DNA of 64,000 nt from Candidatus Eiseniibacteriota bacterium (GCA_963762255.1 CAVXKA010000001.1:1391222-1455221), one strand, 5' to 3'. Positions 44,216 through 56,880 are shown, counted from the first letter of the stretch. A program made the numbers and translations. Notes: generated by a model not told the origin, from the letters alone.

Positions 44216-45625
44216 TCACCCGCGCCGCTCGATGCCGAGGCGGCGCATCTTGCGGTGGAGGTTGGCGCGGTCGATCCCGAGCGTGCGCGCGGCCTGGCTC
44301 ACGTTCCACCCCGCCTTGGCCAGTTCGGCCTCGAGGATCTGCCGCTCGGCGCCGTCGAGGAGGTGCTTCAGGAGATCCCCACCGCTCTCGCCCTCCGCTC
44401 CTTCGGCGTGCGCGCCGCCCAGCCCGGCGAGCCCGGGATCCTCGCCGCAGAGCGTGAGCACCTCCGCGGGGCCGATCGCATCATCCACCGCCATGATCAC
44501 CAGCCGCTCGACCACGTTGCGCAGCTCGCGCACGTTTCCCGGCCAGGACGCTCGGCTCAAGAGGCGCGTCGCGTCCGCGGTGAGCCTCACCTTCGGCCGC
44601 CCGTACTCGCGACGGAAGTAGGTGAGATAGTGCTCGGCAAGGAGCGAAATGTCCTCGGTGCGCTCGCGCAACGGAGGGACCGTGATCGGGAGCACGTTCA
44701 GCCGGTAGAAGAGATCGCGGCGGAACCGGCCCTCGGCGACCTCTTGATGGAGATCCTTGTTCGTGGCGGCGATGATGCGGGCGTCGAACGTGAGGGTTCG
44801 GGTTCCACCCACGCGCTCGAACTCGCTCGATTCGAGCGCGCGCAGCAGCTTGGCCTGAGCCTCGTGGCTCATGTCGCCGATCTCGTCGAGGAAGAGCGTT
44901 CCGCCGTGCGCGAGTTCGAGCTTGCCGCGCTTGAGCGCGGAGGCTCCGGTGAACGCGCCTTTCTCGTGGCCGAAGAGTTCGCTCTCCACGAGATCCTTGG
45001 GAATCGCCGCGCAGTTGAGCCGCACGAAGGTGCCGTCTCGCCGCGCGCTCAGGTCGTGGATGGCGCGGGCCACCAACTCCTTCCCCACGCCGTTCTCGCC
45101 GAGGATGAGCACCTTGGCCGGCGTGGGCGCCGCGCGCTGAACCGCCTCGCGGAGCTGGTGCATGATCGCACTGTCTCCCACGATCTGATGGAGCGCCCCG
45201 CGCTCCTCGCGCAAGGCCAGATTCTGGCGGCGCAAGGCGGCCATGCGGAACGCCCGGTCGAGCGTGATGCCGAGCCGCTCCGGTGTGAAGCCCTTCTCGA
45301 GGAAGTCGAATGCGCCGAGGCGCACCGCCTCTACCGCCAGCTCGATGGTGCCGTGCCCACTCATCATCACGAACGGGATCTCCTCGACGAGGTCGGCTCG
45401 CCGTTGGAGAAAGGCCACTCCGTCTTCCCCGGGCATCCGCACGTCGAGCAGCACCAGGTCCACCGGGTTCCCGTCGCGGGTCAACGATTTCTCGATGGCG
45501 GCGGTGTCCGCTGCCTCGATCACGCGATACCCCTCATCGGTCAGGAACTCCACCAGCGACTTGCGGACGCGCGGCTCGTCGTCCACCACGAGCACGGTCT
45601 TGCGGAGTTCGTCGATCTCGTTCAT
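44216..45625 (-). CDS. Sigma54-dependent response regulator (NtrX/NtrC family)
   Basis: Receiver VLVVDDE...LLDVRMP; GENGVGKE, GAFTGA, LFLDEIG, WPGNVRELRN; Fis HTH. Confidence 0.95.
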   Translation of the reverse strand: MNEIDELRKTVLVVDDEPRVRKSLVEFLTDEGYRVIEAADTAAIEKSLTRDGNPVDLVLLDVRMPGEDGVAFLQRRADLVEEIPFVMMSGHGTIELAVEAVRLGAFDFLEKGFTPERLGITLDRAFRMAALRRQNLALREERGALHQIVGDSAIMHQLREAVQRAAPTPAKVLILGENGVGKELVARAIHDLSARRDGTFVRLNCAAIPKDLVESELFGHEKGAFTGASALKRGKLELAHGGTLFLDEIGDMSHEAQAKLLRALESSEFERVGGTRTLTFDARIIAATNKDLHQEVAEGRFRRDLFYRLNVLPITVPPLRERTEDISLLAEHYLTYFRREYGRPKVRLTADATRLLSRASWPGNVRELRNVVERLVIMAVDDAIGPAEVLTLCGEDPGLAGLGGAHAEGAEGESGGDLLKHLLDGAERQILEAELAKAGWNVSQAARTLGIDRANLHRKMRRLGIERRG

Positions 45626-47184
45626 GAAGCCTCCGAGCGCCGGCCGGCGCCTTCCGGGTTCGATCCGCCTCCCGCCGCGGGGAGCATGAGAACGACGCGA
45701 GCGCCGCCGCCGGGCCGATCCTGGAGTTCCATCGAGCCTCCGTGCTGGAGCATGGTGCGCTGCACCAGGCTCAGGCCCAGCCCGGTGCCCTGTTCCTTGG
45801 TCGTGAAGTAGGGCTCGAGCATGGTCTCTCGCGCGCCCGGAGGCCAGCCGGGGCCGTCGTCGTCGATCGTGATTCGCACGCGGCCGGGCGCCTCGTCCAG
45901 CCCGATCCATACCTGCCCGCTCTCTCCGGCGGCCTCGGCTGCGTTCTTGAGGATGTTGCCGAGCGCCTGACGCAGGAGCGTGCGATCGGCGCGCGACCAT
46001 GCCGGTTCTGCGGGAGGCGACCAGTGGATCCGAAGGGTTCCGGTGAGACCTTCCACCGCCCCGGCGACGACCTCGCGCAGGTCGACTCGGGTCGCTTCGA
46101 CCATGGGCAGGCGCGCCAGCTCGCTGAAGGATGCGGCCAGGCGCTGGAGGCCCTCCACCTCATCGCCCAGCGTATCCAACGCGCGTCGCGCACGCTCGCG
46201 TTCGGCCTCGGGCAGATCCGGCGTGAGTTTCCGCAACCGGTGGAGGGAGAACGTAACCGGGGTCAGTGCGTTCTTCATCTCGTGGGCCACGCGGCGCGCC
46301 ACCTCCTGCCAGGCGCTCAGCCGCTCGGCGCTCGCGAGGTCGCGACGGGAGCGCGAGAGCTCCGCGCTCATGGCGTTGAAGGTCTGGATGAGCCGCTCCA
46401 CCTCGCGGCTTCCCTCCGGCCCGACCCGCACCCCTTCCTCGCCGAGGGCCACCCGCTCCATGCCGTCGGCGAGGTTGGCCACCGGCCGGCTCACGCGCAT
46501 CGCCAGCCGCCGGGCGGTCCAGGCGGAGCCGAGCCCGAGGAACGCGACGGTGAACGCAACCGTGAGCATCAGTGCGCTCCGATTGACGCGCTTCAGCACG
46601 GCGAGCTGCCGATAGTACGCGACCCCCTGAGACAGCCGGTCGAGCCGGGCGTAGAACTCGGGTTCGAGATAGATGCCGGCCACGAGGATGGCGTTGTTCT
46701 GGCCGGGCTCCCCCGCGAAGCCCGCGTAGACAAGCAGGCCTCGGGCGGCCTCCTCCAGGAACGGCTGATCCGAGGCGGCGAGACGGACGACCGACGAGAG
46801 CGTTCCGACGGGATCGATCAGCGGGTCGCGCGTGACCTCGAGCTGGAGGACTCCCTCGGCGTCATAGAGCTGCATGAAGTCGATGTTGTAGGCGCTGGCG
46901 AGGCGGGCGCGCAGCGCCGCCGGATCGGCGGGCGGCCCGAGAGCGGGATCCGCGACCAGCAACTGGCCGCGCTGGCGCAGATCGTTGCGCGTGCGGGTGA
47001 GGAGATCGCGCGCGACTTCAATGCTCCCTTCGAGCGCGCTCTGCACTCCCGGGTTCTCCCAGCGCTCGAGAGAAGCCAGGAGCCGATGGGTGGCGAGTGC
47101 GGTGAGCGTGAGAGAAGGGAGCAGGGTCAGCACAAGGAAGAGGAGCATGAGCTGCCCCCCCAGCGTACGCGGCGCCATGGCCAT
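45622..47184 (-). CDS. HAMP sensor histidine kinase (NtrY-like)
   Basis: Two TMs, HAMP, AHEMKNALTP, NILKNAAE, DDDGPG, GTGLGL. Confidence 0.93.
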   Translation of the reverse strand: MAMAPRTLGGQLMLLFLVLTLLPSLTLTALATHRLLASLERWENPGVQSALEGSIEVARDLLTRTRNDLRQRGQLLVADPALGPPADPAALRARLASAYNIDFMQLYDAEGVLQLEVTRDPLIDPVGTLSSVVRLAASDQPFLEEAARGLLVYAGFAGEPGQNNAILVAGIYLEPEFYARLDRLSQGVAYYRQLAVLKRVNRSALMLTVAFTVAFLGLGSAWTARRLAMRVSRPVANLADGMERVALGEEGVRVGPEGSREVERLIQTFNAMSAELSRSRRDLASAERLSAWQEVARRVAHEMKNALTPVTFSLHRLRKLTPDLPEAERERARRALDTLGDEVEGLQRLAASFSELARLPMVEATRVDLREVVAGAVEGLTGTLRIHWSPPAEPAWSRADRTLLRQALGNILKNAAEAAGESGQVWIGLDEAPGRVRITIDDDGPGWPPGARETMLEPYFTTKEQGTGLGLSLVQRTMLQHGGSMELQDRPGGGARVVLMLPAAGGGSNPEGAGRRSEAS

Positions 47185-49537: not shown

Positions 49538-52500
49538 GTGAACCGTTCGAACGAATCAGAACGGCGTCCCCGACGCGGTGCCTCCGCGCTTGAGGGAGAG
49601 GTCTGGCAGGATCTCCCCGAGGCGGTGAAGTACGGGGACGTTTGTTACCAAGCGGAGCGCTTTGCCGATGCGCTGGAGGCGTACGGCAAGGCTTTGGAGG
49701 CCTCCGCCAAGAACCGGGCGAACGCCCTTCCGGCCGAAGTGCGCGCGCGGCTGCACTACCGCATGGCCTCGTGCTACATGCGTCGGGCCAGCTACCGCCA
49801 GGCACTCGAACAGCTCGATCTCTCCCGACAGGCCCTCCCTCGGCACCTCGACAAGATCCGCCTTGCCAAGATCTACGCGCGCCGCGGCTACATCCTCATA
49901 GAGATGGGGCAGTACGCTCGCGCAGAGCGGCATCTCGTCTGGAGCAAGAAGCTCCTGAGCGGAACCAACGAGCACGAGGAACTGGCCAACCTGGAAACCC
50001 ATCTGGGGACGCTCTACGCGCGCGTGGGGCGGTCGGACGAATCGCGGCAGTCGTTCCTCAGCGCGCTGGCCACCTTCCGCCGCATCGGTGACCGCGAAGG
50101 CGAGGCCCGTTCGTTCAACAACCTCGGCCTTCATTACAAGAACGCTTGCGAATGGCGGGAGGCGGTGCGCTACCTCGAGGAGGCGCGCACGCTCTGGGGA
50201 CGTCTCGGCCATCGCAAGTACCTGGTGGTCGTTCAACTCAACCTCGGCATCGTCCACTTCAAGCTCGGCAAGTGGGAGCTATGCGAAGAGAACCTTGCCG
50301 CCGGGGAGTCGCTTGCGCGGGAACTCGCCGAGAGCCAGCAGCTCGTGCGCATCCAGCTCGCGCAGGGCAACCTCGCGCTGCGGCGCTGTCGTTGGGACGA
50401 GGCGAAGCTGCTCTACAACCAGGCGCTCGACGTGGCGCGGACCGAGTCGTACGGCCGAGAATCGGTACTGGCTCAGGAGTTTCTGGGCGAGCTGCACTTC
50501 GAGCGAGCGGAATTCGAGGAAGCATCAACGCTTCTCGAAGCTGCCCTTGGGGCGGCGCGGGCGATCGCTCCCGAGGGCGACCTGGTGAGCGAAAGTCTGC
50601 GTCGCTTGGCGGAGACCCGTCTGGCCCAGGGGCGCTTCCAGGAGGCGCTGGATCACGCCAAGGAATCGGCGGCTCTCGCCAGCCGCATGGGCGATCGCTA
50701 CGAAGAAGCGGTGGCGTTGCGGAGCGTGGGCTTGGCCATGATTCGTCTGGGACGCCGCGACGAGGGCGAGCGACTTCTGCAGATGAGCCTCGATAGCCTG
50801 GGTGAGATTGGAGAGTCCTACCAGAAGGGCGCGACCCACTTCGCCTACGGTGTCTTCCTTGCCGAGTCGGCCATGGAAACCCGGTCTACCCAGGAATTGG
50901 AGCAGGCCGGAGTCCATCTCCAGCGCGCCTACGGGGCATTCCTCGACCTCGATGCCCGTGTGCGAGCGGCCGATGCTGCGTACCGACGCGCGGCGCTTGA
51001 GAGCCACTTTCATCGCTTCGACGAGGCGGCGACCTTCCGCGGCAAGGCGCGGCAGGTCCTTCCCGCCGGCGCGGCCCCCGCCCTGGAAGAGAAACTGAAC
51101 CGCCTGGGCTCCGAACTCGAGGACGCATTCGCGGAGCGCTGGCCTTCGGGAGGCGACGTTCTCGCATCGCTCCGCGAGATGAAGCGATTGTTCCAGGGGG
51201 CGACCGACTCCGAAGCGGTGCTGAAGGAACTCATCCGCCTGGCGGTGACCCGCTCCGGTTCGACCCGAGGCTGCGTGGCCCATCTGGGCCGGAACGGGCG
51301 CGTGGAGGTCGTCGCCACGTTCGGCTGGACCCCGGCCGACGCGAAGGCGCTGATCGGCGCGCTGGGTGGCGCGCTTCGGGGCGCTCTGGACGACAACCGT
51401 CCGGTGTGGACCAACAACGCGGCCGAGGACGAACGATTCCGCCCGGTGGCCGGCGGGACACGTTTCGGGGTGAGCAGCCTGGTGCTCCTGCCTCTGACCC
51501 TCACCGATCAGGAGCCCGGCTTCCTCTACGTGGACAAGACCCCCGAGAATACCGAGGGCGCCTATCACCAGGGAGAGCTGCACCTTCTCACCATCCTGGC
51601 CAACCTCGCCGCGCTCTCGATCATCGAGCGGTGGAACTCGCGGTTGGTGAAGGAGAACGAGGAACTTCGGGCGCGCATCGCTCTGGGCGAGGGGGAGGAT
51701 CGGTTCGTCACCGCGCACCCCGGGCTCAAAGAGACCTTGCGACTCGTCACGAAGGTGGCCAACAGCCCCGTTTCGATCCTCGTCGAAGGGGAGACGGGGA
51801 CGGGCAAGGGACTGCTGGCTCAGATCATCCACGACGCATCCAACCGCCGCGACAAGCCCTTCGTCCAGATCAACTGCGCCGCGCTCCCCGAGCAGCTTCT
51901 CGAGAGCGAGCTCTTCGGGCACATGAAGGGTTCCTTCACCGGGGCGGCCTACAACAAAATCGGGCTTTTCAAGGAAGCCGAGAACGGCACCATCTTCCTG
52001 GACGAGGTGGACAAGACCACACTCGCCGTTCAGGCCAAGCTCCTTCACGTGATGGACTCGAAGGAAGTGCGGCCGGTCGGCTCGGTGAAGCCCTACCGAG
52101 TGGACACCCGCGTGATCTGCGCGACCAACTCGAACCTGCGGGAGAAGATCCGGGCAGGGGAATTCCTGGAAGACCTCTACTACCGTCTCAACGACTTTAT
52201 CGTCACGGTGCCGCCTCTGCGCGACCGGCGTGAGGATCTCCCCCTGCTTCTGGACTACTTCATAAAGAAGTTTTCCACCCAGTACGGGCGGCCGGAAATT
52301 CGCCTCTCGCCTGAGGTGAGTCGCGTGCTCCTCGATCACCACTGGCCGGGCAACGTGCGCGAGCTCGAGAAGACGATTCGCCGGCTGGTCGTGCTGGCGG
52401 ACGAGGAACTTCCGGTTGGACTCGATCTTCTTCCGGTGGAGATTCAAACCGAGAAGTTAAGTTTCTCCGGGCAGACTCTGCGGGAAGAAGTTTCGCGCGT

Positions 52501-52636
52501 CGAACGCCGGGTCATCGCGGAGGGGCTGCGCGCCAACGACTGGAACAAGGCTCAGGTGGCCCGGGTGTTGAAGGTCTCCTACCCTTGTCTGCTCAAGAAG
52601 ATCAAGGAGCATCACCTCAGTCCACCGGAGCGCTGA
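49538..52636 (+). CDS. TPR-GAF-AAA+ (sigma54 activator)-HTH enhancer-binding protein
   Basis: About 550 aa of TPR-like repeats, GAF-like region, GETGTGKG, GSFTGA, FLDEVD, WPGNVRELE, Fis HTH. Confidence 0.93.
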   Translation: MNRSNESERRPRRGASALEGEVWQDLPEAVKYGDVCYQAERFADALEAYGKALEASAKNRANALPAEVRARLHYRMASCYMRRASYRQALEQLDLSRQALPRHLDKIRLAKIYARRGYILIEMGQYARAERHLVWSKKLLSGTNEHEELANLETHLGTLYARVGRSDESRQSFLSALATFRRIGDREGEARSFNNLGLHYKNACEWREAVRYLEEARTLWGRLGHRKYLVVVQLNLGIVHFKLGKWELCEENLAAGESLARELAESQQLVRIQLAQGNLALRRCRWDEAKLLYNQALDVARTESYGRESVLAQEFLGELHFERAEFEEASTLLEAALGAARAIAPEGDLVSESLRRLAETRLAQGRFQEALDHAKESAALASRMGDRYEEAVALRSVGLAMIRLGRRDEGERLLQMSLDSLGEIGESYQKGATHFAYGVFLAESAMETRSTQELEQAGVHLQRAYGAFLDLDARVRAADAAYRRAALESHFHRFDEAATFRGKARQVLPAGAAPALEEKLNRLGSELEDAFAERWPSGGDVLASLREMKRLFQGATDSEAVLKELIRLAVTRSGSTRGCVAHLGRNGRVEVVATFGWTPADAKALIGALGGALRGALDDNRPVWTNNAAEDERFRPVAGGTRFGVSSLVLLPLTLTDQEPGFLYVDKTPENTEGAYHQGELHLLTILANLAALSIIERWNSRLVKENEELRARIALGEGEDRFVTAHPGLKETLRLVTKVANSPVSILVEGETGTGKGLLAQIIHDASNRRDKPFVQINCAALPEQLLESELFGHMKGSFTGAAYNKIGLFKEAENGTIFLDEVDKTTLAVQAKLLHVMDSKEVRPVGSVKPYRVDTRVICATNSNLREKIRAGEFLEDLYYRLNDFIVTVPPLRDRREDLPLLLDYFIKKFSTQYGRPEIRLSPEVSRVLLDHHWPGNVRELEKTIRRLVVLADEELPVGLDLLPVEIQTEKLSFSGQTLREEVSRVERRVIAEGLRANDWNKAQVARVLKVSYPCLLKKIKEHHLSPPER

Positions 52637-52856
52637 CCCGGTACTCCGCCCCACATTCTCCGTGCTGTATCAAATCCCTTTATAGCCTGAAACCCAGCAA
52701 AACGGCGGTATTTTCCCCTGCGGCGCCGAGGCGATAAAGAATGTTTATAGTGGCGACCTGGTACGCTTCCCGCAAGGCCGTCACCGCCCTACCCACCCGA
52801 CGCGTAACTCGTTCCCGCAGGATGCATTAACAGTTGATCCGCGGACGGCGCCGTCC

Positions 52857-52873
52857 TTGGCACGGCCTCTGCA
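52857..52873 (+). promoter_or_regulatory. Sigma54 -24/-12 promoter
   Basis: TTGGCAC-GGCCT-CTGCA upstream of the AAA ATPase gene. Confidence 0.65.
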
Positions 52874-53032
52874 TATATGAGCCTGCGGAGGGGGGACCTC
52901 CGGAGCCGAAAGCCGTCGGGTTCCAAGCGCAACACGCATCGCAGCTCAGTTGTCCCTGCCGGACTTGGAACCCGATGGGTCGGCCCTCGTCTTCCGCGAC
53001 CGAGGCGTTCACCAAGAAAGCGGGGGGGGATC

Positions 53033-54499
53033 GTGAGGCGCGAACGGACCGAAGCCTATCGCGATCAGTTCGAATACCTCGCGGACTGCTTCGACTTCAT
53101 TCGCAAGCGTGGGGACGCCTACACCATCCGCACCGAGGCGCTGGAGAGCGAGCGGATGTCCCAGTACGGAGAGCGGAGCGGCTTCGACCTTGAGCGTAGC
53201 CGCCTCCTCAGCATCTACCACGGGATCGAGACCGAGGTGGCGCGCAAGGAAGAGGAAATCCACCGACGCCGGCAGGAGACCGACGCGCTGGGGATCCACT
53301 TTCCCCTCGATACCTTTATCGAACGGTACAGGCTGCGTCCCGAAGAGACGCAGATTCTCCTGGTTCTCCTTCACAACGAGTCAGTCGGTCGAAGCCATGC
53401 GCGCTTCAGCTCCGGGAACGAGATCCTGAATCTCCTGTTTCCCAATCCGGTGAGCGCGTTGAAGGCTTCCTCGTTTCTCGATGTGGGGGCGACGCTCCTC
53501 GAGGAGGGGCTCATCAGGTCATTCTCCGATGACGAGGCCACCAACTTCTTAAGGGCTGCCTACGAAGTCACGGAGAAGACCCTGCACGAGGTGTTGGGAG
53601 TCCGCGATCGCAGCGCGATCAGGGACCAGCAGCATGCTCCCCGCACTTCCAGCAGTCCTCTCGAGAGCCCTTTCCGGGTCGTCGCCCCCCGTGTTCGCCT
53701 CGAGCAGGTCGTGCTCCCCGAAGCGGTCCGCCAAGGCATCGAAGAAGTCCTGTGGCAGGCCGAGCAGGGGCAGGAGCTGTTTCGTGAGTGGGGTCTGGAC
53801 GAGGTCGTGGAGAAGGGGCGCGGGACCATTGTGTTGTTCAGCGGCCTTCCCGGCACCGGCAAGACGATGACCGCCGAGGCGATCGCCGAGCGCCTCGGCC
53901 GTCCCCTCTACGTCGCCGACTACGCCCAGCTCGAGAGCAAGTGGATCGGCGAGACCGAGAAGAACATCGTGGCCGTGTTCCAGGCCGCGAGCCAGGCCGG
54001 GGCGGTTCTCCTCTTGGACGAGGCGGACGCCGTCCTCGCCGCTCGCCTTGACGGAGGCCACTACAACGATCGCGCGTACAACCGCCAGGTGAGCATCCTG
54101 CTCGGCGAGATGGAGGCATTTCCCGGCACATGCATCCTCACCACCAATCGGGTGGTGACTCTGGACGAAGGATTGGCGCGGCGCATCGCGGCTAGCTTTG
54201 AGTTCACGATCCCGGAGGCGGGGGAGCGGTCGCGCATCTGGAAGGCGCTGCTCCCGGCCAGGGTGCCTCTGGCAGACGATGTGGATCTGGATCAGTTGGC
54301 CCGACGGTTTCCAATGGCCGGCGGGCACATCAAGAATGCCGTCCTCACGGCGGTCCGCAAGGCGGGCCGGCGTGCGGGCCGGGGAGCGCGTGTAACGCAG
54401 CGGGATTTCATCGAGGCGGCGGCGGCCGAGCAAGACAGCTTCCGCCCGTGTTCCCGACCCATCGGGTTTCAGGAGGCTTCCTCCGCTTCCTACTCGTGA
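53033..54499 (+). CDS. AAA+ ATPase with an N-terminal winged-helix-like region (track start 52877)
   Basis: LFSGLPGTGKTMTAE, SKWIGETEKN, LLLDEAD, ILTTNR, GGHIKNAV. Confidence 0.9.
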   Translation: MRRERTEAYRDQFEYLADCFDFIRKRGDAYTIRTEALESERMSQYGERSGFDLERSRLLSIYHGIETEVARKEEEIHRRRQETDALGIHFPLDTFIERYRLRPEETQILLVLLHNESVGRSHARFSSGNEILNLLFPNPVSALKASSFLDVGATLLEEGLIRSFSDDEATNFLRAAYEVTEKTLHEVLGVRDRSAIRDQQHAPRTSSSPLESPFRVVAPRVRLEQVVLPEAVRQGIEEVLWQAEQGQELFREWGLDEVVEKGRGTIVLFSGLPGTGKTMTAEAIAERLGRPLYVADYAQLESKWIGETEKNIVAVFQAASQAGAVLLLDEADAVLAARLDGGHYNDRAYNRQVSILLGEMEAFPGTCILTTNRVVTLDEGLARRIAASFEFTIPEAGERSRIWKALLPARVPLADDVDLDQLARRFPMAGGHIKNAVLTAVRKAGRRAGRGARVTQRDFIEAAAAEQDSFRPCSRPIGFQEASSASYS

Positions 54500-54619
54500 G
54501 GTCTCGCTGCGTGACACCGCCGACGGCTCTTGGGCGGCGACAGGAAGCGGTGCCGGTGGACGCCGGCGCCGCCGGGACTTGCCGGATCGAGTGTCCGTGG
54601 TTCGGCAAGGCGTCGCGAT

Positions 54620-54878
54620 ACGGTGGGTTAGACCGAGATGGTTATCCCGTCGCAAGCGAGGTGCAAGAGAGAGGGGAGTGGGAGCACTAACGAGCGCAGG
54701 CTCCCGTTCCCAGCCATCCCTCCCGTCCATGACGGGCGGGGTTTCCGGTCAGGCGAGATGGACGCTTGCCGGAAAGTTGGAACCGTGAGGGTTCCGTTCG
54801 GGCATAGGCACTCGGCGCGCAGACCACACATGGGGATGTCCAGGCTCGTGCCGAAGTGAAAACCGAATGCTCGGACCT
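54620..54878 (+). ncRNA. Unidentified highly structured RNA candidate
   Basis: Stems 54674-85/54700-11, 54722-27/54731-36, 54742-55/54763-75, 54779-84/54790-95, 54797-805/54867-75, 54809-16/54850-58, several with G-U pairs; ends at a strong terminator; no convincing ORF. Confidence 0.45.
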
Positions 54879-54879
54879 G

Positions 54880-54916
54880 CGCGACGTCGGAGGACACTCC
54901 GGCGTCGCGTTTTTTT
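54880..54916 (+). terminator. Intrinsic terminator
   Basis: CGCGACGTCGGAG-GACA-CTCCGGCGTCGCG followed by T7. Confidence 0.85.
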
Positions 54917-55010
54917 GTGCCGCGCGGTCGCGGGCGCTGGGCTCGACCGGTTCAGGGCGTTGCCCGCCGAGCGCTTGACCTGCTCGCCCCCGCCCGTCGA
55001 TAGTGGATGC

Positions 55011-55856
55011 ATGACGGTTTCATCCGACGAACCCGCGCACCGCGCATTCCCCGGCTTTGGCCAGGCGATGCTCCTCGTCGTCTTCATCTGGCTGGCTATC
55101 CTCTTCGTCGCAGTCGCCGCCACGGTTGCGCAGTCACTGCGGGCGGGCCAAGTGGAGATGCCCTCCGAGGCGACCCTCCTTCTTGTCGCCAATACCGCGG
55201 GGTTCTTCCTGATCACCGGCCTCGGCTGGCGGTACACCGGAGCGAGGTTCGGCGAGGTGTTTCCCCTGCGCCGGTTCGATCCTCGGCTCCTGGCCCCTGT
55301 GTTCCTGTTCACCCTGGGAAGTGTGGCCGTCCTGTCGCAGGTCGATTCCGTGCTCCGACTGCTCCCTGCCCCTGACTGGTGGAACGCGCTCCTGCGCACG
55401 ATCGATGAGACCATGTTAGACCTGATCCGCGAGTCGTACTGGGCCGCCGCGATCGCCCTGGTGGTGATGGCGCCGGTCACCGAAGAACTCTTCTTCCGAG
55501 GGCTGGTGCTCCGCGGATTCCGCCTGCGCTATTCCAGGAAGAAGGCGATCGTCCTCTCCGCGCTTCTTTTCGCCATCACCCACCTCACCCCGAACCAGTT
55601 TCTCTCCGCGTTCGCGATCGGGCTCTTCCTCGCCTGGATCGTGCTCGAGACTGGAAGCCTCTGGCTCGCGCTCTTCGTTCACGCGGTGGCGAATGGATCC
55701 GGCGTGCTCGCGGCGGGCGCGGGGATGATGGTGCCGTCCGGCGCGGAGCAGCCGGAACTCCTGCCGTGGTGGACCACGCTGGCGGGTCTCGCGGCCCTCG
55801 CCGGCGGGTGGCGGTGGCTGCGTCATCTGCTCCCGTCGCGCTCCCCCGCGATGTAG
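55011..55856 (+). CDS. CPBP (Abi/CAAX type II) intramembrane metalloprotease
   Basis: EELFFRG, FAITH, HAVAN; multiple TMs. Confidence 0.9.
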   Translation: MTVSSDEPAHRAFPGFGQAMLLVVFIWLAILFVAVAATVAQSLRAGQVEMPSEATLLLVANTAGFFLITGLGWRYTGARFGEVFPLRRFDPRLLAPVFLFTLGSVAVLSQVDSVLRLLPAPDWWNALLRTIDETMLDLIRESYWAAAIALVVMAPVTEELFFRGLVLRGFRLRYSRKKAIVLSALLFAITHLTPNQFLSAFAIGLFLAWIVLETGSLWLALFVHAVANGSGVLAAGAGMMVPSGAEQPELLPWWTTLAGLAALAGGWRWLRHLLPSRSPAM

Positions 55857-55987
55857 CGCCGCCGCTACAAGCGCGTCCCCCTGACCACGGTTGCCGCATC
55901 CGCTCGACGCGCCCCCGCGCAGCCTCCTCGCCCCCTTAATCCATGGAAGACAAAGGGTTGAGTAGTCGGCCGAACCCGGCGAATCGA

Positions 55988-56004
55988 TTGGCACCCTGCT
56001 TGCG
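55988..56004 (+). promoter_or_regulatory. Sigma54 -24/-12 promoter
   Basis: TTGGCAC-CCTGC-TTGCG, consensus match just upstream of ATG 56017. Confidence 0.75.
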
Positions 56005-56016
56005 TTATGGGGGGGC

Positions 56017-56880
56017 ATGAGAGACGCAAGCAAGCTTTCAAGATGGGTTCGCATTCGCCGGGCGGGGTTGACGGTGTTGCTCGCCGGACTCCTCGGCGGG
56101 TTCGTCGGCGGTTGCGATGAGGACTGTCTCCTCTGCTCGGACTGCGGTTCGCCCAACGCGCCGGTCGACGTCTACTCGGTGACCGGCGACGAGGAGATCG
56201 CGCTCTACTGGACCCCGGTCAACCTGGAGGCCGTGGACGAGTTCGTGGTCTACCGCTCCGCCAACGCGGAAGGCCCTTATGTGGAGATCGATCACACCCG
56301 GCGCGACATGTTCGTCGACCGCGACGTGCGCAACGGGCGTACCTACTTCTACGCGGTGACCGCGATCGACGCGTGCGGCTACGAGTCGGATCTCTCTCGC
56401 GAGCTGGTCCACGATACGCCCCGCCCGGAGGGATTCGGGGCGCGCCTCGACGACGCCAACGGCGACGCGTACGCGCGCAGCGGCTGGGACTTCAGCGCCT
56501 ATCGCGCGCTCGTGTGGGATCACGACGAGACCGATGTCTACTTCGTGATTTCCGAGGGCGTGCCGTTCCTGGTCGCGGCCGACCTGGCCACCGATATCCA
56601 GGACGCGGGCTACACCGACTTCGACGGCGTGGACTGGGCGCCCGAGCGCGGGTGGAGCCCCTCCGGCTCCGTCGAGCTCATTCCCGGGCACATGATCGTG
56701 GTGTGGACGCGGGACAACCACTTCGCGAAGGTGCGGGTGGAGTCGGTCGGCGCAGGAAGGCTCACCTTCGACTGGGCGTACCAGATCGACACCGGCAACC
56801 GCGAGCTGGCGCCGCGGCCGGGCAACGGGCTCCGAATTCAGGCGGCTCCGGGGCTGCGCCCGGCGCCGCGGGCGCTTTGA
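56017..56880 (+). CDS. Lipoprotein with a fibronectin type III-like domain
   Basis: Lipobox-like VGGC; LYWTPV...FVVYRS...TYFYAVTAID...ES. Confidence 0.75.
   Translation: MRDASKLSRWVRIRRAGLTVLLAGLLGGFVGGCDEDCLLCSDCGSPNAPVDVYSVTGDEEIALYWTPVNLEAVDEFVVYRSANAEGPYVEIDHTRRDMFVDRDVRNGRTYFYAVTAIDACGYESDLSRELVHDTPRPEGFGARLDDANGDAYARSGWDFSAYRALVWDHDETDVYFVISEGVPFLVAADLATDIQDAGYTDFDGVDWAPERGWSPSGSVELIPGHMIVVWTRDNHFAKVRVESVGAGRLTFDWAYQIDTGNRELAPRPGNGLRIQAAPGLRPAPRAL

Follow-up and report, generated by a model that had tools for sequence, protein, structure and literature searches.

A structured RNA linked to a sigma-54 activator gene in Candidatus Eisenbacteria, and its probable place as the 3′ module of an AAA+ ATPase transcript

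The locus considered here raises the question of what kind of RNA precedes a CPBP (Rce1-like) protease gene in an uncultured bacterium, and to which transcript that RNA belongs. Within a window of 64,000 nucleotides (the whole stretch of DNA that was analysed) from a Candidatus Eisenbacteria MAG, positions 54620-54916 had been flagged from the sequence alone as a multi-stem RNA with its own terminator, which was read either as a stand-alone ncRNA or as a riboswitch-like attenuator of the gene that follows. To our knowledge, the phylum Candidatus Eisenbacteria has no cultured member and no described regulatory RNAs. Our literature searches found no paper pairing Eisenbacteria with sigma-54 and, when Eisenbacteria was combined with RNA terms, no paper on Eisenbacteria.

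Fold and conservation of the flagged RNA

Every stem named in the original prediction is present in the + strand of 54620-54916. These include the nested pairing, in which TTCGGGCAT (54797-54805) pairs with ATGCTCGGA (54867-54875) around CACTCGGC/GCCGAAGTG, and the terminator, a stem at 54879-54910 followed by T7 at 54910-54916, the end of which lies 95 nt before the in-frame CPBP ATG at 55011, as had been estimated. The G-U pairs that were taken to favor the + strand are found in several stems and agree with that strand. The + strand of 54620-54916 has a minimum free energy of -149 kcal/mol, compared to -119.4 +/- 5.4 kcal/mol for 200 dinucleotide-preserving shuffles, none of which folds as well (0/200; z = -5.49), while the - strand gives z = -3.61 in the same test.

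The flagged stretch is single-copy in its genome, and a BLAST search across 60 relatives recovers it in the same genus and family. In a seven-member alignment, RNAalifold predicts 74 pairs, 26 of which have compensatory changes. When this alignment is trimmed, both sides have changed in 25 of 71 pairs and standard pairs fill 92.8% of the pair cells, whereas sliding the 3′ partners by 1-3 columns leaves pairing in only 40-53%; none of five covariation measures is reached by any of 500 shuffles of the trimmed alignment. Among these seven members of the window's order, invariant blocks (GGAGGUGCAAG, CGAGCGCAGGC, CGAGAUGGACG, GGAACC...GGUUCC and CAGACCAUAUAUGGGGGAUGUCCAGGCUGGUGCC) alternate with variable stems, and the R1 covariance model matches the RNA in 9 of the order's 10 genomes. 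The multi-stem RNA is thus genuine and conserved by both the shuffle test and covariation, and we are nearly certain that it is real.

Two further covarying hairpins (54547-54572 and 54578-54609, with 8 of 20 pairs compensatory) lie 5′ of the start that had been assigned, so that the element really spans ~54547-54916 and consists, on the + strand, of about nine helices and a 14-bp terminator. One detail of the original prediction, the alternative pairing GATGGTT/AGCCATC, gained no support, the sequences being too uniform and locally too poorly aligned; an equally good partner for the conserved CCAUC is the GAUGG loop within the 54743-54774 hairpin, and the variation is too low to discriminate between the two. 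The features of the locus are as follows.

49538-52636, +: gene for a TPR-GAF-sigma54 enhancer-binding protein (Pfam matches, tblastn synteny)
52858-52872, +: sigma-54 promoter P1, TGGCACGGCCTCTGC (-24 GG, -12 GC)
52887-52901, +: invariant 5′ hairpin GGAGG-GGGGA-CCUCC (GGAGGGGGGACCUCC), 13-14 nt past the -12 GC
52915-52976, +: second 5′-UTR hairpin, GUCGGGUUCCAAG ... CUUGGAACCCGAU (family f1 sequences compared by eye)
53033-54499, +: AAA+ ATPase ORF (winged-helix PF22977 and AAA PF00004)
54547-54572, +: hairpin a of the 3′ region (covariation)
54578-54609, +: hairpin b of the 3′ region, with conserved loop GAGUGUCYG (covariation)
54621-54652, +: hairpin c of the 3′ region, variable in sequence but a hairpin in every relative
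54656-54667, +: conserved unpaired block GYGGAGGUGCAAG (GCGAGGUGCAAG in the window; alignment)
54674-54711, +: helix H1, 12 bp, with conserved loop AACGAGCGCAG (double-sided changes in 5 pairs)
54716-54742, +: helix H2, with conserved GCCAUCC 5′ of it (alignment and covariation)
54743-54774, +: helix H3, with conserved loop CGAGAUGGACG (alignment and covariation)
54779-54795, +: helix H4, GGAACC/GGUUCC (RNAalifold)
54796-54876, +: long hairpin H5, the phylum-wide module (outer and inner stems covary)
54821-54846, +: invariant tip of H5, AGACC-ACACAU-GGGGAUGUCCAGGCU (pattern scan)
54879-54916, +: intrinsic terminator with a 14-bp G+C-rich stem, GGAC loop and U7

The RNA had been proposed to fall in no class that could be named, and a scan of the region with Rfam 15 (4227 models) bears this out, with no match over or near it at gathering thresholds; seven homologous loci compared to Rfam likewise gave no match. 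A permissive scan of 54400-55100 returns only ncS01 and RsmW, both below threshold. The best match, to ncS01 (RF02865, Burkholderia sRNA 1), covers 54806-54914 with 26.6 bits against a gathering score of 58, but the resemblance is largely via the terminator hairpin, and the aligned stems contain so many non-canonical pairs that the window RNA is not a member; the match to RsmW reaches 18.9 bits. RNase P and 6S were also considered as identities and rejected, since both are found elsewhere in the genome: RNase P on contig C3 (307.5 bits), and 6S at C2:243811-243989 (87.3 bits) and C1:103435-103588 (49.6 bits). Both 6S matches lie above the Rfam cut-off, and the genome may therefore carry two 6S-type RNAs.

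A phylum-wide hairpin and an activator-linked promoter

Weaker matches to the R1 model across the class retain just the last long hairpin, H5. Across the phylum, the consensus of its tip is [C/U]AG[A/G]CC, followed by 5-8 nt and then (G)GGGGAUGUCCAGGCU. When species-representative genomes are scanned with the tip pattern, ~30 loci are obtained, nearly all of them in Candidatus Eisenbacteria/Eiseniibacteriota. The exact 15-mer GGGGAUGUCCAGGCU occurs in 47 of 206 species of the phylum, with one copy per genome, and in all 10 genomes of the window's order (10/10), while a reversed-pattern control gives 0. At least 30 homologous hairpins, each folded singly, converge on one common architecture, built from an outer stem of 9-13 bp that is highly divergent in sequence, then an internal loop of asymmetric shape, a second, inner stem and lastly the invariant tip, within which UGGG is paired with UCCA around the loop GGAUG.

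Folding the hairpins one by one, together with a partner-swap test, was preferred because MAFFT aligned the 30 shared hairpins poorly and the resulting RNAalifold consensus was weak. In the partner-swap test, a hairpin's own 5′ and 3′ flanks pair with a mean of -34.6 kcal/mol, as opposed to -22.3 kcal/mol with flanks from other lineages; the own partner ranks first in 17/32 cases and within the top 5 in 31/32. Better pairing of own than of swapped flanks is covariation, and it assigns the function to the RNA itself. The motif ATGTCCAGGCT shows conservation at all codon positions, which indicates no coding constraint on it, and a small-protein gene was rejected because the RNA of lineages without the ATPase contains no conserved ORF. 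In several lineages, a U run directly abuts the 3′ side of the shared hairpin, such that the hairpin itself is the terminator.

The second constant element of these loci is found upstream. The gene at 49538-52636 encodes an activator of 1032 aa with a TPR-GAF-sigma54-HTH arrangement, and by tblastn synteny, its ortholog lies upstream on the same strand at every locus for which the flanking sequence suffices. Outside the window's order, TGGCA[CT]-N5-NTGC is located 160-480 nt 5′ of the core in 21 of the 23 loci with enough upstream sequence, compared to a background of 0.10-0.18 matches per 600 nt, and 12-15 nt past this promoter there is an almost invariant hairpin, GGAGGGGGGGACCUCC / CGGAGGGGGGGACCUCC. 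In most lineages, the sigma-54 promoter and the 5′ hairpin directly begin an RNA of 220-560 nt that ends in the shared hairpin; these RNAs have no ORF in common, and several are without any ORF of >14 codons. Many of the ATPase-less lineages (L062, L073, L039, L076 and others) have in common a large middle domain, CUGGGCUAGCCGG...GGUCGAGGGUACGAGCCCC...CCGGCUAGCUUGGA, which is absent from the window's family. The RNAs can thus be described as having constant 5′ and 3′ hairpins with exchangeable middle parts.

In the window's order, no sigma-54-like site is found within 600 nt upstream of the core. Here, an AAA+ ATPase gene is placed between the activator gene and the RNA, and the promoter P1 (TGGCACGGCCTCTGC), which fits 9/10 consensus positions and is homologous to the promoter directly 5′ of the RNA in other lineages, sits 1.7 kb upstream of the flagged RNA with the ORF in between. 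In all of the genomes of the order that were examined (7/7), the ATPase ORF is preceded by both P1 and the 5′ hairpin, and each of the two motifs is unique in the window's genome. The 5′ hairpin begins 13-14 nt past the -12 GC and is thus at the predicted 5′ end of the transcript; the second 5′ hairpin (52915-52976) is kept in family f1 with paired changes. The RpoN box ARRTVAKYR is present in the genome, which therefore encodes sigma-54. With a promoter, 5′ hairpin, activator gene and 3′ hairpin of the same kind as in other lineages, the flagged RNA very probably belongs to an activator-linked sigma-54 family.

Inverted repeats of the type TATCAA-N-TTGATA occur ~120 and ~190 nt upstream of P1 (52660-52760 in the window). 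Two sister genomes (L095 and L097) have perfect copies and the window has degenerate ones; the repeats are a likely activator-binding site. A perfect inverted repeat of a different type, TGTAGCG-N4-CGCTACA, is located at 55852-55869, overlapping the CPBP stop codon and ~120 nt 5′ of the second sigma-54 promoter of the region, P2 (described below). A common activator site 5′ of P1 and P2 was considered and set aside, since the two kinds of repeats are not alike. One activator for both promoters is thus not established, and it is from adjacency only that the neighboring activator is taken to drive P1. The - strand encodes another sigma-54 activator at 44216-46000, 3.5 kb upstream; it is of the response-regulator type and could regulate one of the two sigma-54 promoters near the RNA.

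The ATPase gene, the CPBP gene and competing readings of the RNA

The ATPase combines a winged helix (PF22977) with an AAA domain (PF00004) and is Cdc48/p97-like by sequence. An alignment of orthologs places its start at the GTG at 53033, which is preceded by the ribosome-binding site GGGGGGGGA and gives a 488-aa protein with a 5′ UTR of ~150 nt containing two hairpins. The ATG of the longest ORF, at 52877, lies between P1 and the predicted transcription start. In annotation terms, the start codon of the ATPase is thus probably 53033 rather than 52877, and the ~420 nt past the stop codon are functional RNA rather than spacer. This stop codon, at 54499, is followed by the RNA, and on the + strand of 52600-56100, the sole terminator-like site is that at 54879-54910. 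From P1 to 54879 on this strand, there is no other terminator and no sigma-70-like promoter, and 54500-54800 (+) contains neither a sigma-54 match of at least 8/10 nor a sigma-70-like site. Because the promoter types of this phylum may differ from the consensus that was searched, an unrecognized promoter inside 54500-54660 is possible.

These observations divide the reading of the RNA as a stand-alone ncRNA into two parts. The structured RNA and its terminator hold on the + strand, whereas stand-alone status is doubtful in the window, since no promoter is found between the ATPase stop codon and the RNA, and P1 and the 5′ hairpin precede the ATPase ORF. This arrangement makes the flagged RNA most likely the structured 3′ part of that transcript. 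From the order of sites along the + strand, we predict that it is co-transcribed with the ATPase ORF, which we hold to be quite likely, and we favor on balance the fuller statement that it is probably the 3′ module of a sigma-54-dependent transcript representing an undescribed RNA family of Candidatus Eisenbacteria. What is unusual in this order is that a protein-coding gene lies between two conserved RNA modules.

Downstream, the CPBP gene is an f1-specific insertion between the RNA and an operon. Immediately ahead of the CPBP ATG, 54975-55004 carries the only sigma-70-like promoter on the + strand of 52600-56100, TTGACC-18-GATAGT; its position suggests that CPBP is transcribed on its own. 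In almost all lineages, the conserved downstream neighbor of the RNA is an Fn3-like lipoprotein gene (in the window at 56017-56880, with a weak Fn3-like match). Its promoter P2, TGGCACCCTGCTTGC (55989-56003), is a perfect sigma-54 consensus and is present in most lineages outside the order. The genes 3′ of the lipoprotein gene encode a DUF4384 protein, an M6-like peptidase with FG-GAP repeats, a PorV/PorP-like protein and a subtilase. One conceivable mode of action, in which the lipoprotein leader would pair with the invariant tip or the 5′ loop, was rejected: duplex energies of -12 to -24 kcal/mol are obtained, but at scattered positions and with no conserved site.

The main competitor to the 3′ module is an independent small-RNA gene with its own unrecognized promoter past the ATPase stop codon, in which case the upstream copy would be a duplicate serving the ATPase message only. 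An alignment matches the f1 block GGUGGAGGUGCAAG to the 5′ hairpin region of one distant homologue, which could mean that a complete RNA gene, rather than a tail, lies 3′ of the ATPase gene; in addition, one f2 genome has a GGGAGG...CCUCCC hairpin directly 5′ of the shared hairpin, and ~150 nt of conserved structure stand ahead of the core domain. However, the 54500-54800 interval offers neither kind of promoter, no terminator past the stop codon separates the ATPase message from the RNA, and family f2 has just ~70 nt between the stop codon and the shared hairpin. We consider such a gene unlikely. Less likely still, and by a clear step, is a purely cis-acting 3′ UTR that merely terminates or stabilizes the ATPase message. 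Although tail and message have a common terminator, and the shared hairpin with its U run serves as the terminator in several lineages, the hairpin is kept with its invariant 16-nt tip even where no ORF precedes it; stabilizer hairpins have no need of invariant loop and stem sequence, and the roughly nine covarying helices in f1 go far beyond the needs of termination.

Two further readings look away from the ATPase gene, and we rate both far below those just discussed. The original prediction included regulated termination ahead of CPBP, by a riboswitch or attenuator, and it is true that the RNA lies upstream of this gene on the same strand, that a complex fold is followed by a terminator, and that RNA-CPBP synteny is maintained within f1. 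The RNA is kept before other genes, however: CPBP follows it in f1 alone and is absent in f2 and all other families, and elsewhere the next conserved gene is the Fn3 lipoprotein gene with its own sigma-54 promoter. Since CPBP follows the RNA only in f1, the RNA is not a CPBP attenuator; with a sigma-70-like promoter also intervening between terminator and CPBP, and no anti-terminator alternative evident for the 14-bp terminator, we assign this proposal next to no probability. Scarcely more credible is a CsrA/Rsm-type sponge that would titrate CsrA through GGA motifs in its loops. The CsrA SELEX consensus is reportedly RUACARGGAUGU, and the tip GGGGAUGU, with GGA in its loop, resembles it; GGA is also present in the loops of the 5′ hairpin and H3, and there is the weak match to RsmW. 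Yet CsrA (PF02599) is missing in 8/8 f1 genomes, all of which keep the RNA, and this makes a sponge unlikely. Of 61 genomes in the class, 43 do have PF02599, some of them in families without the RNA core, and tblastn for CsrA in the window's genome is negative. Moreover, the RsmW score is far under its cut-off of 52, just two or three GGA loops are conserved, and GGA is not clearly enriched, with ~10 occurrences in 400 nt compared to ~7 expected in a rough hand count of one homologue.

The tblastn searches of the genome also gave no clear Hfq and no clear ProQ. Feedback was also considered, in which the RNA would pair with a C-run at the beginning of the activator's mRNA. Just past the activator start codon, AUCCCCCC(C)GAU occurs in 7 of 9 f10-type lineages (L039, L076, L042, L079, L035, L073 and L078, with the ORF start GUGCAG.G.GCGAUCCCCCC(C)GAU), and CUCCCCCAGAU occurs in two more (L062 and L081). 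By sequence, this C-run complements the RNA's G-rich loops, yet in f10-type lineages it coincides with conserved (I/T)-P-P-D codons, and feedback of this kind was rejected for the window because the C-run is not conserved in five f1 genomes.

Known regulatory plans and the biology of the locus

The layout of these loci has counterparts in other phyla. The crcZ gene adjoins cbrB, Pxr of Myxococcus lies downstream of the sigma-54 regulator gene nla19, Qrr of Vibrio lies beside luxO, and NrsZ of Pseudomonas lies downstream of ntrC; the Pxr, Qrr and NrsZ genes each adjoin the sigma-54 activator gene that is thought to drive them. The glnA gene, in turn, is sigma-54/NtrC-dependent. In the window, we find two elements of the CrcZ/Pxr/Qrr/NrsZ layout, taken as an architectural class: upstream, on the strand of the RNA, a promoter with -24 GG/-12 GC, and next to it a gene for an enhancer-binding protein, with sigma-54 encoded in the genome. 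A terminator is present as well, but the predicted transcript in the window's order carries the AAA+ ORF, whereas the RNA of lineages without the ATPase has no conserved ORF. CrcZ of Pseudomonas is an ncRNA of several hundred nucleotides with a sigma-54 promoter under the direct control of CbrB (PMC6296734). The Eisenbacteria layout in most lineages, that is, activator gene, sigma-54 promoter, RNA and terminator, resembles that of CrcZ/CrcY. However, CrcZ has no sequence or structure similarity to the window RNA (no Rfam match), and it binds Hfq/Crc through A-rich motifs whereas the window RNA is G/C-rich with G-rich loops; furthermore, the Eisenbacteria activator is of the TPR-GAF type rather than a two-component response regulator, and in the window an ORF lies between promoter and RNA. 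Pxr, Qrr and NrsZ, at ~100-230 nt, are far shorter than the Eisenbacteria RNA, belong to other phyla with unrelated folds, and have no protein gene nested between 5′ and 3′ modules.

The window itself, with its ATPase ORF, folded tail, common terminator and sigma-54 promoter, is closer in plan to GlnZ, a regulatory RNA that occupies the glnA 3′ UTR, ends at the mRNA's own terminator and is liberated by RNase E (PMC9731577). As in 3′-UTR sRNAs of the GlnZ and CpxQ type, no promoter-like site is found between the stop codon at 54499 and the terminator at 54879-54910. The differences are that GlnZ is short and Hfq-dependent with a linear seed, while the window tail has ~370 nt and about nine helices, with processing only predicted, and that this tail is homologous to an RNA standing alone in related lineages. 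There is no homology to CrcZ, GlnZ, Pxr, Qrr or NrsZ. The family is thus new as an RNA family, while its regulatory plan is a known one.

If the RNA is the 3′ module of a sigma-54-dependent transcript, as we favor, the locus might operate as follows. A trigger acting on the TPR-GAF sensor part would lead the neighboring activator to fire P1 (52858), producing one transcript from ~52884 to 54916 in which the 5′ hairpin is followed by the ATPase message and then by the folded tail of 370 nt. This tail would act as a regulatory RNA, whether it stays attached or is cut free by a ribonuclease in the way that GlnZ is from the glnA mRNA. Its action would proceed via the invariant G-rich loops, GGGGA in the 5′ hairpin and GGAUG in the H5 tip, which would bind a conserved protein or C-rich RNA targets. 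Our confidence in any specific molecular mechanism is low.

A broader scenario is that an ancestral activator-linked RNA gene took a protein gene into its interior, and taken jointly with all of its consequences, it is a tentative one that we doubt as a whole. By this account, the invariant 5′ and 3′ hairpins, which elsewhere are the two ends of one ncRNA, would now flank the AAA+ ORF unchanged, and one sigma-54 transcript would serve at once as message and as regulatory-RNA precursor or scaffold. That the tail has grown to about nine helices in this family may then reflect a new partnership, for example with the winged-helix ATPase, and the unit as a whole might provide the RNA output for a TPR-GAF activator that senses a peptide or ligand, in a quorum-type circuit similar to LuxO-Qrr.

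Beyond this scenario, a well-supported but unnamed RNA family is added for an uncultured phylum. With one activator gene, one sigma-54 promoter and one RNA in 47 species, it forms a compact circuit that could be rebuilt in a laboratory host to learn what signal is sensed by the TPR-GAF activator. The same two RNA modules are kept both with and without a protein gene between them, and this natural experiment bears on how small-RNA genes and messages may be converted into one another.
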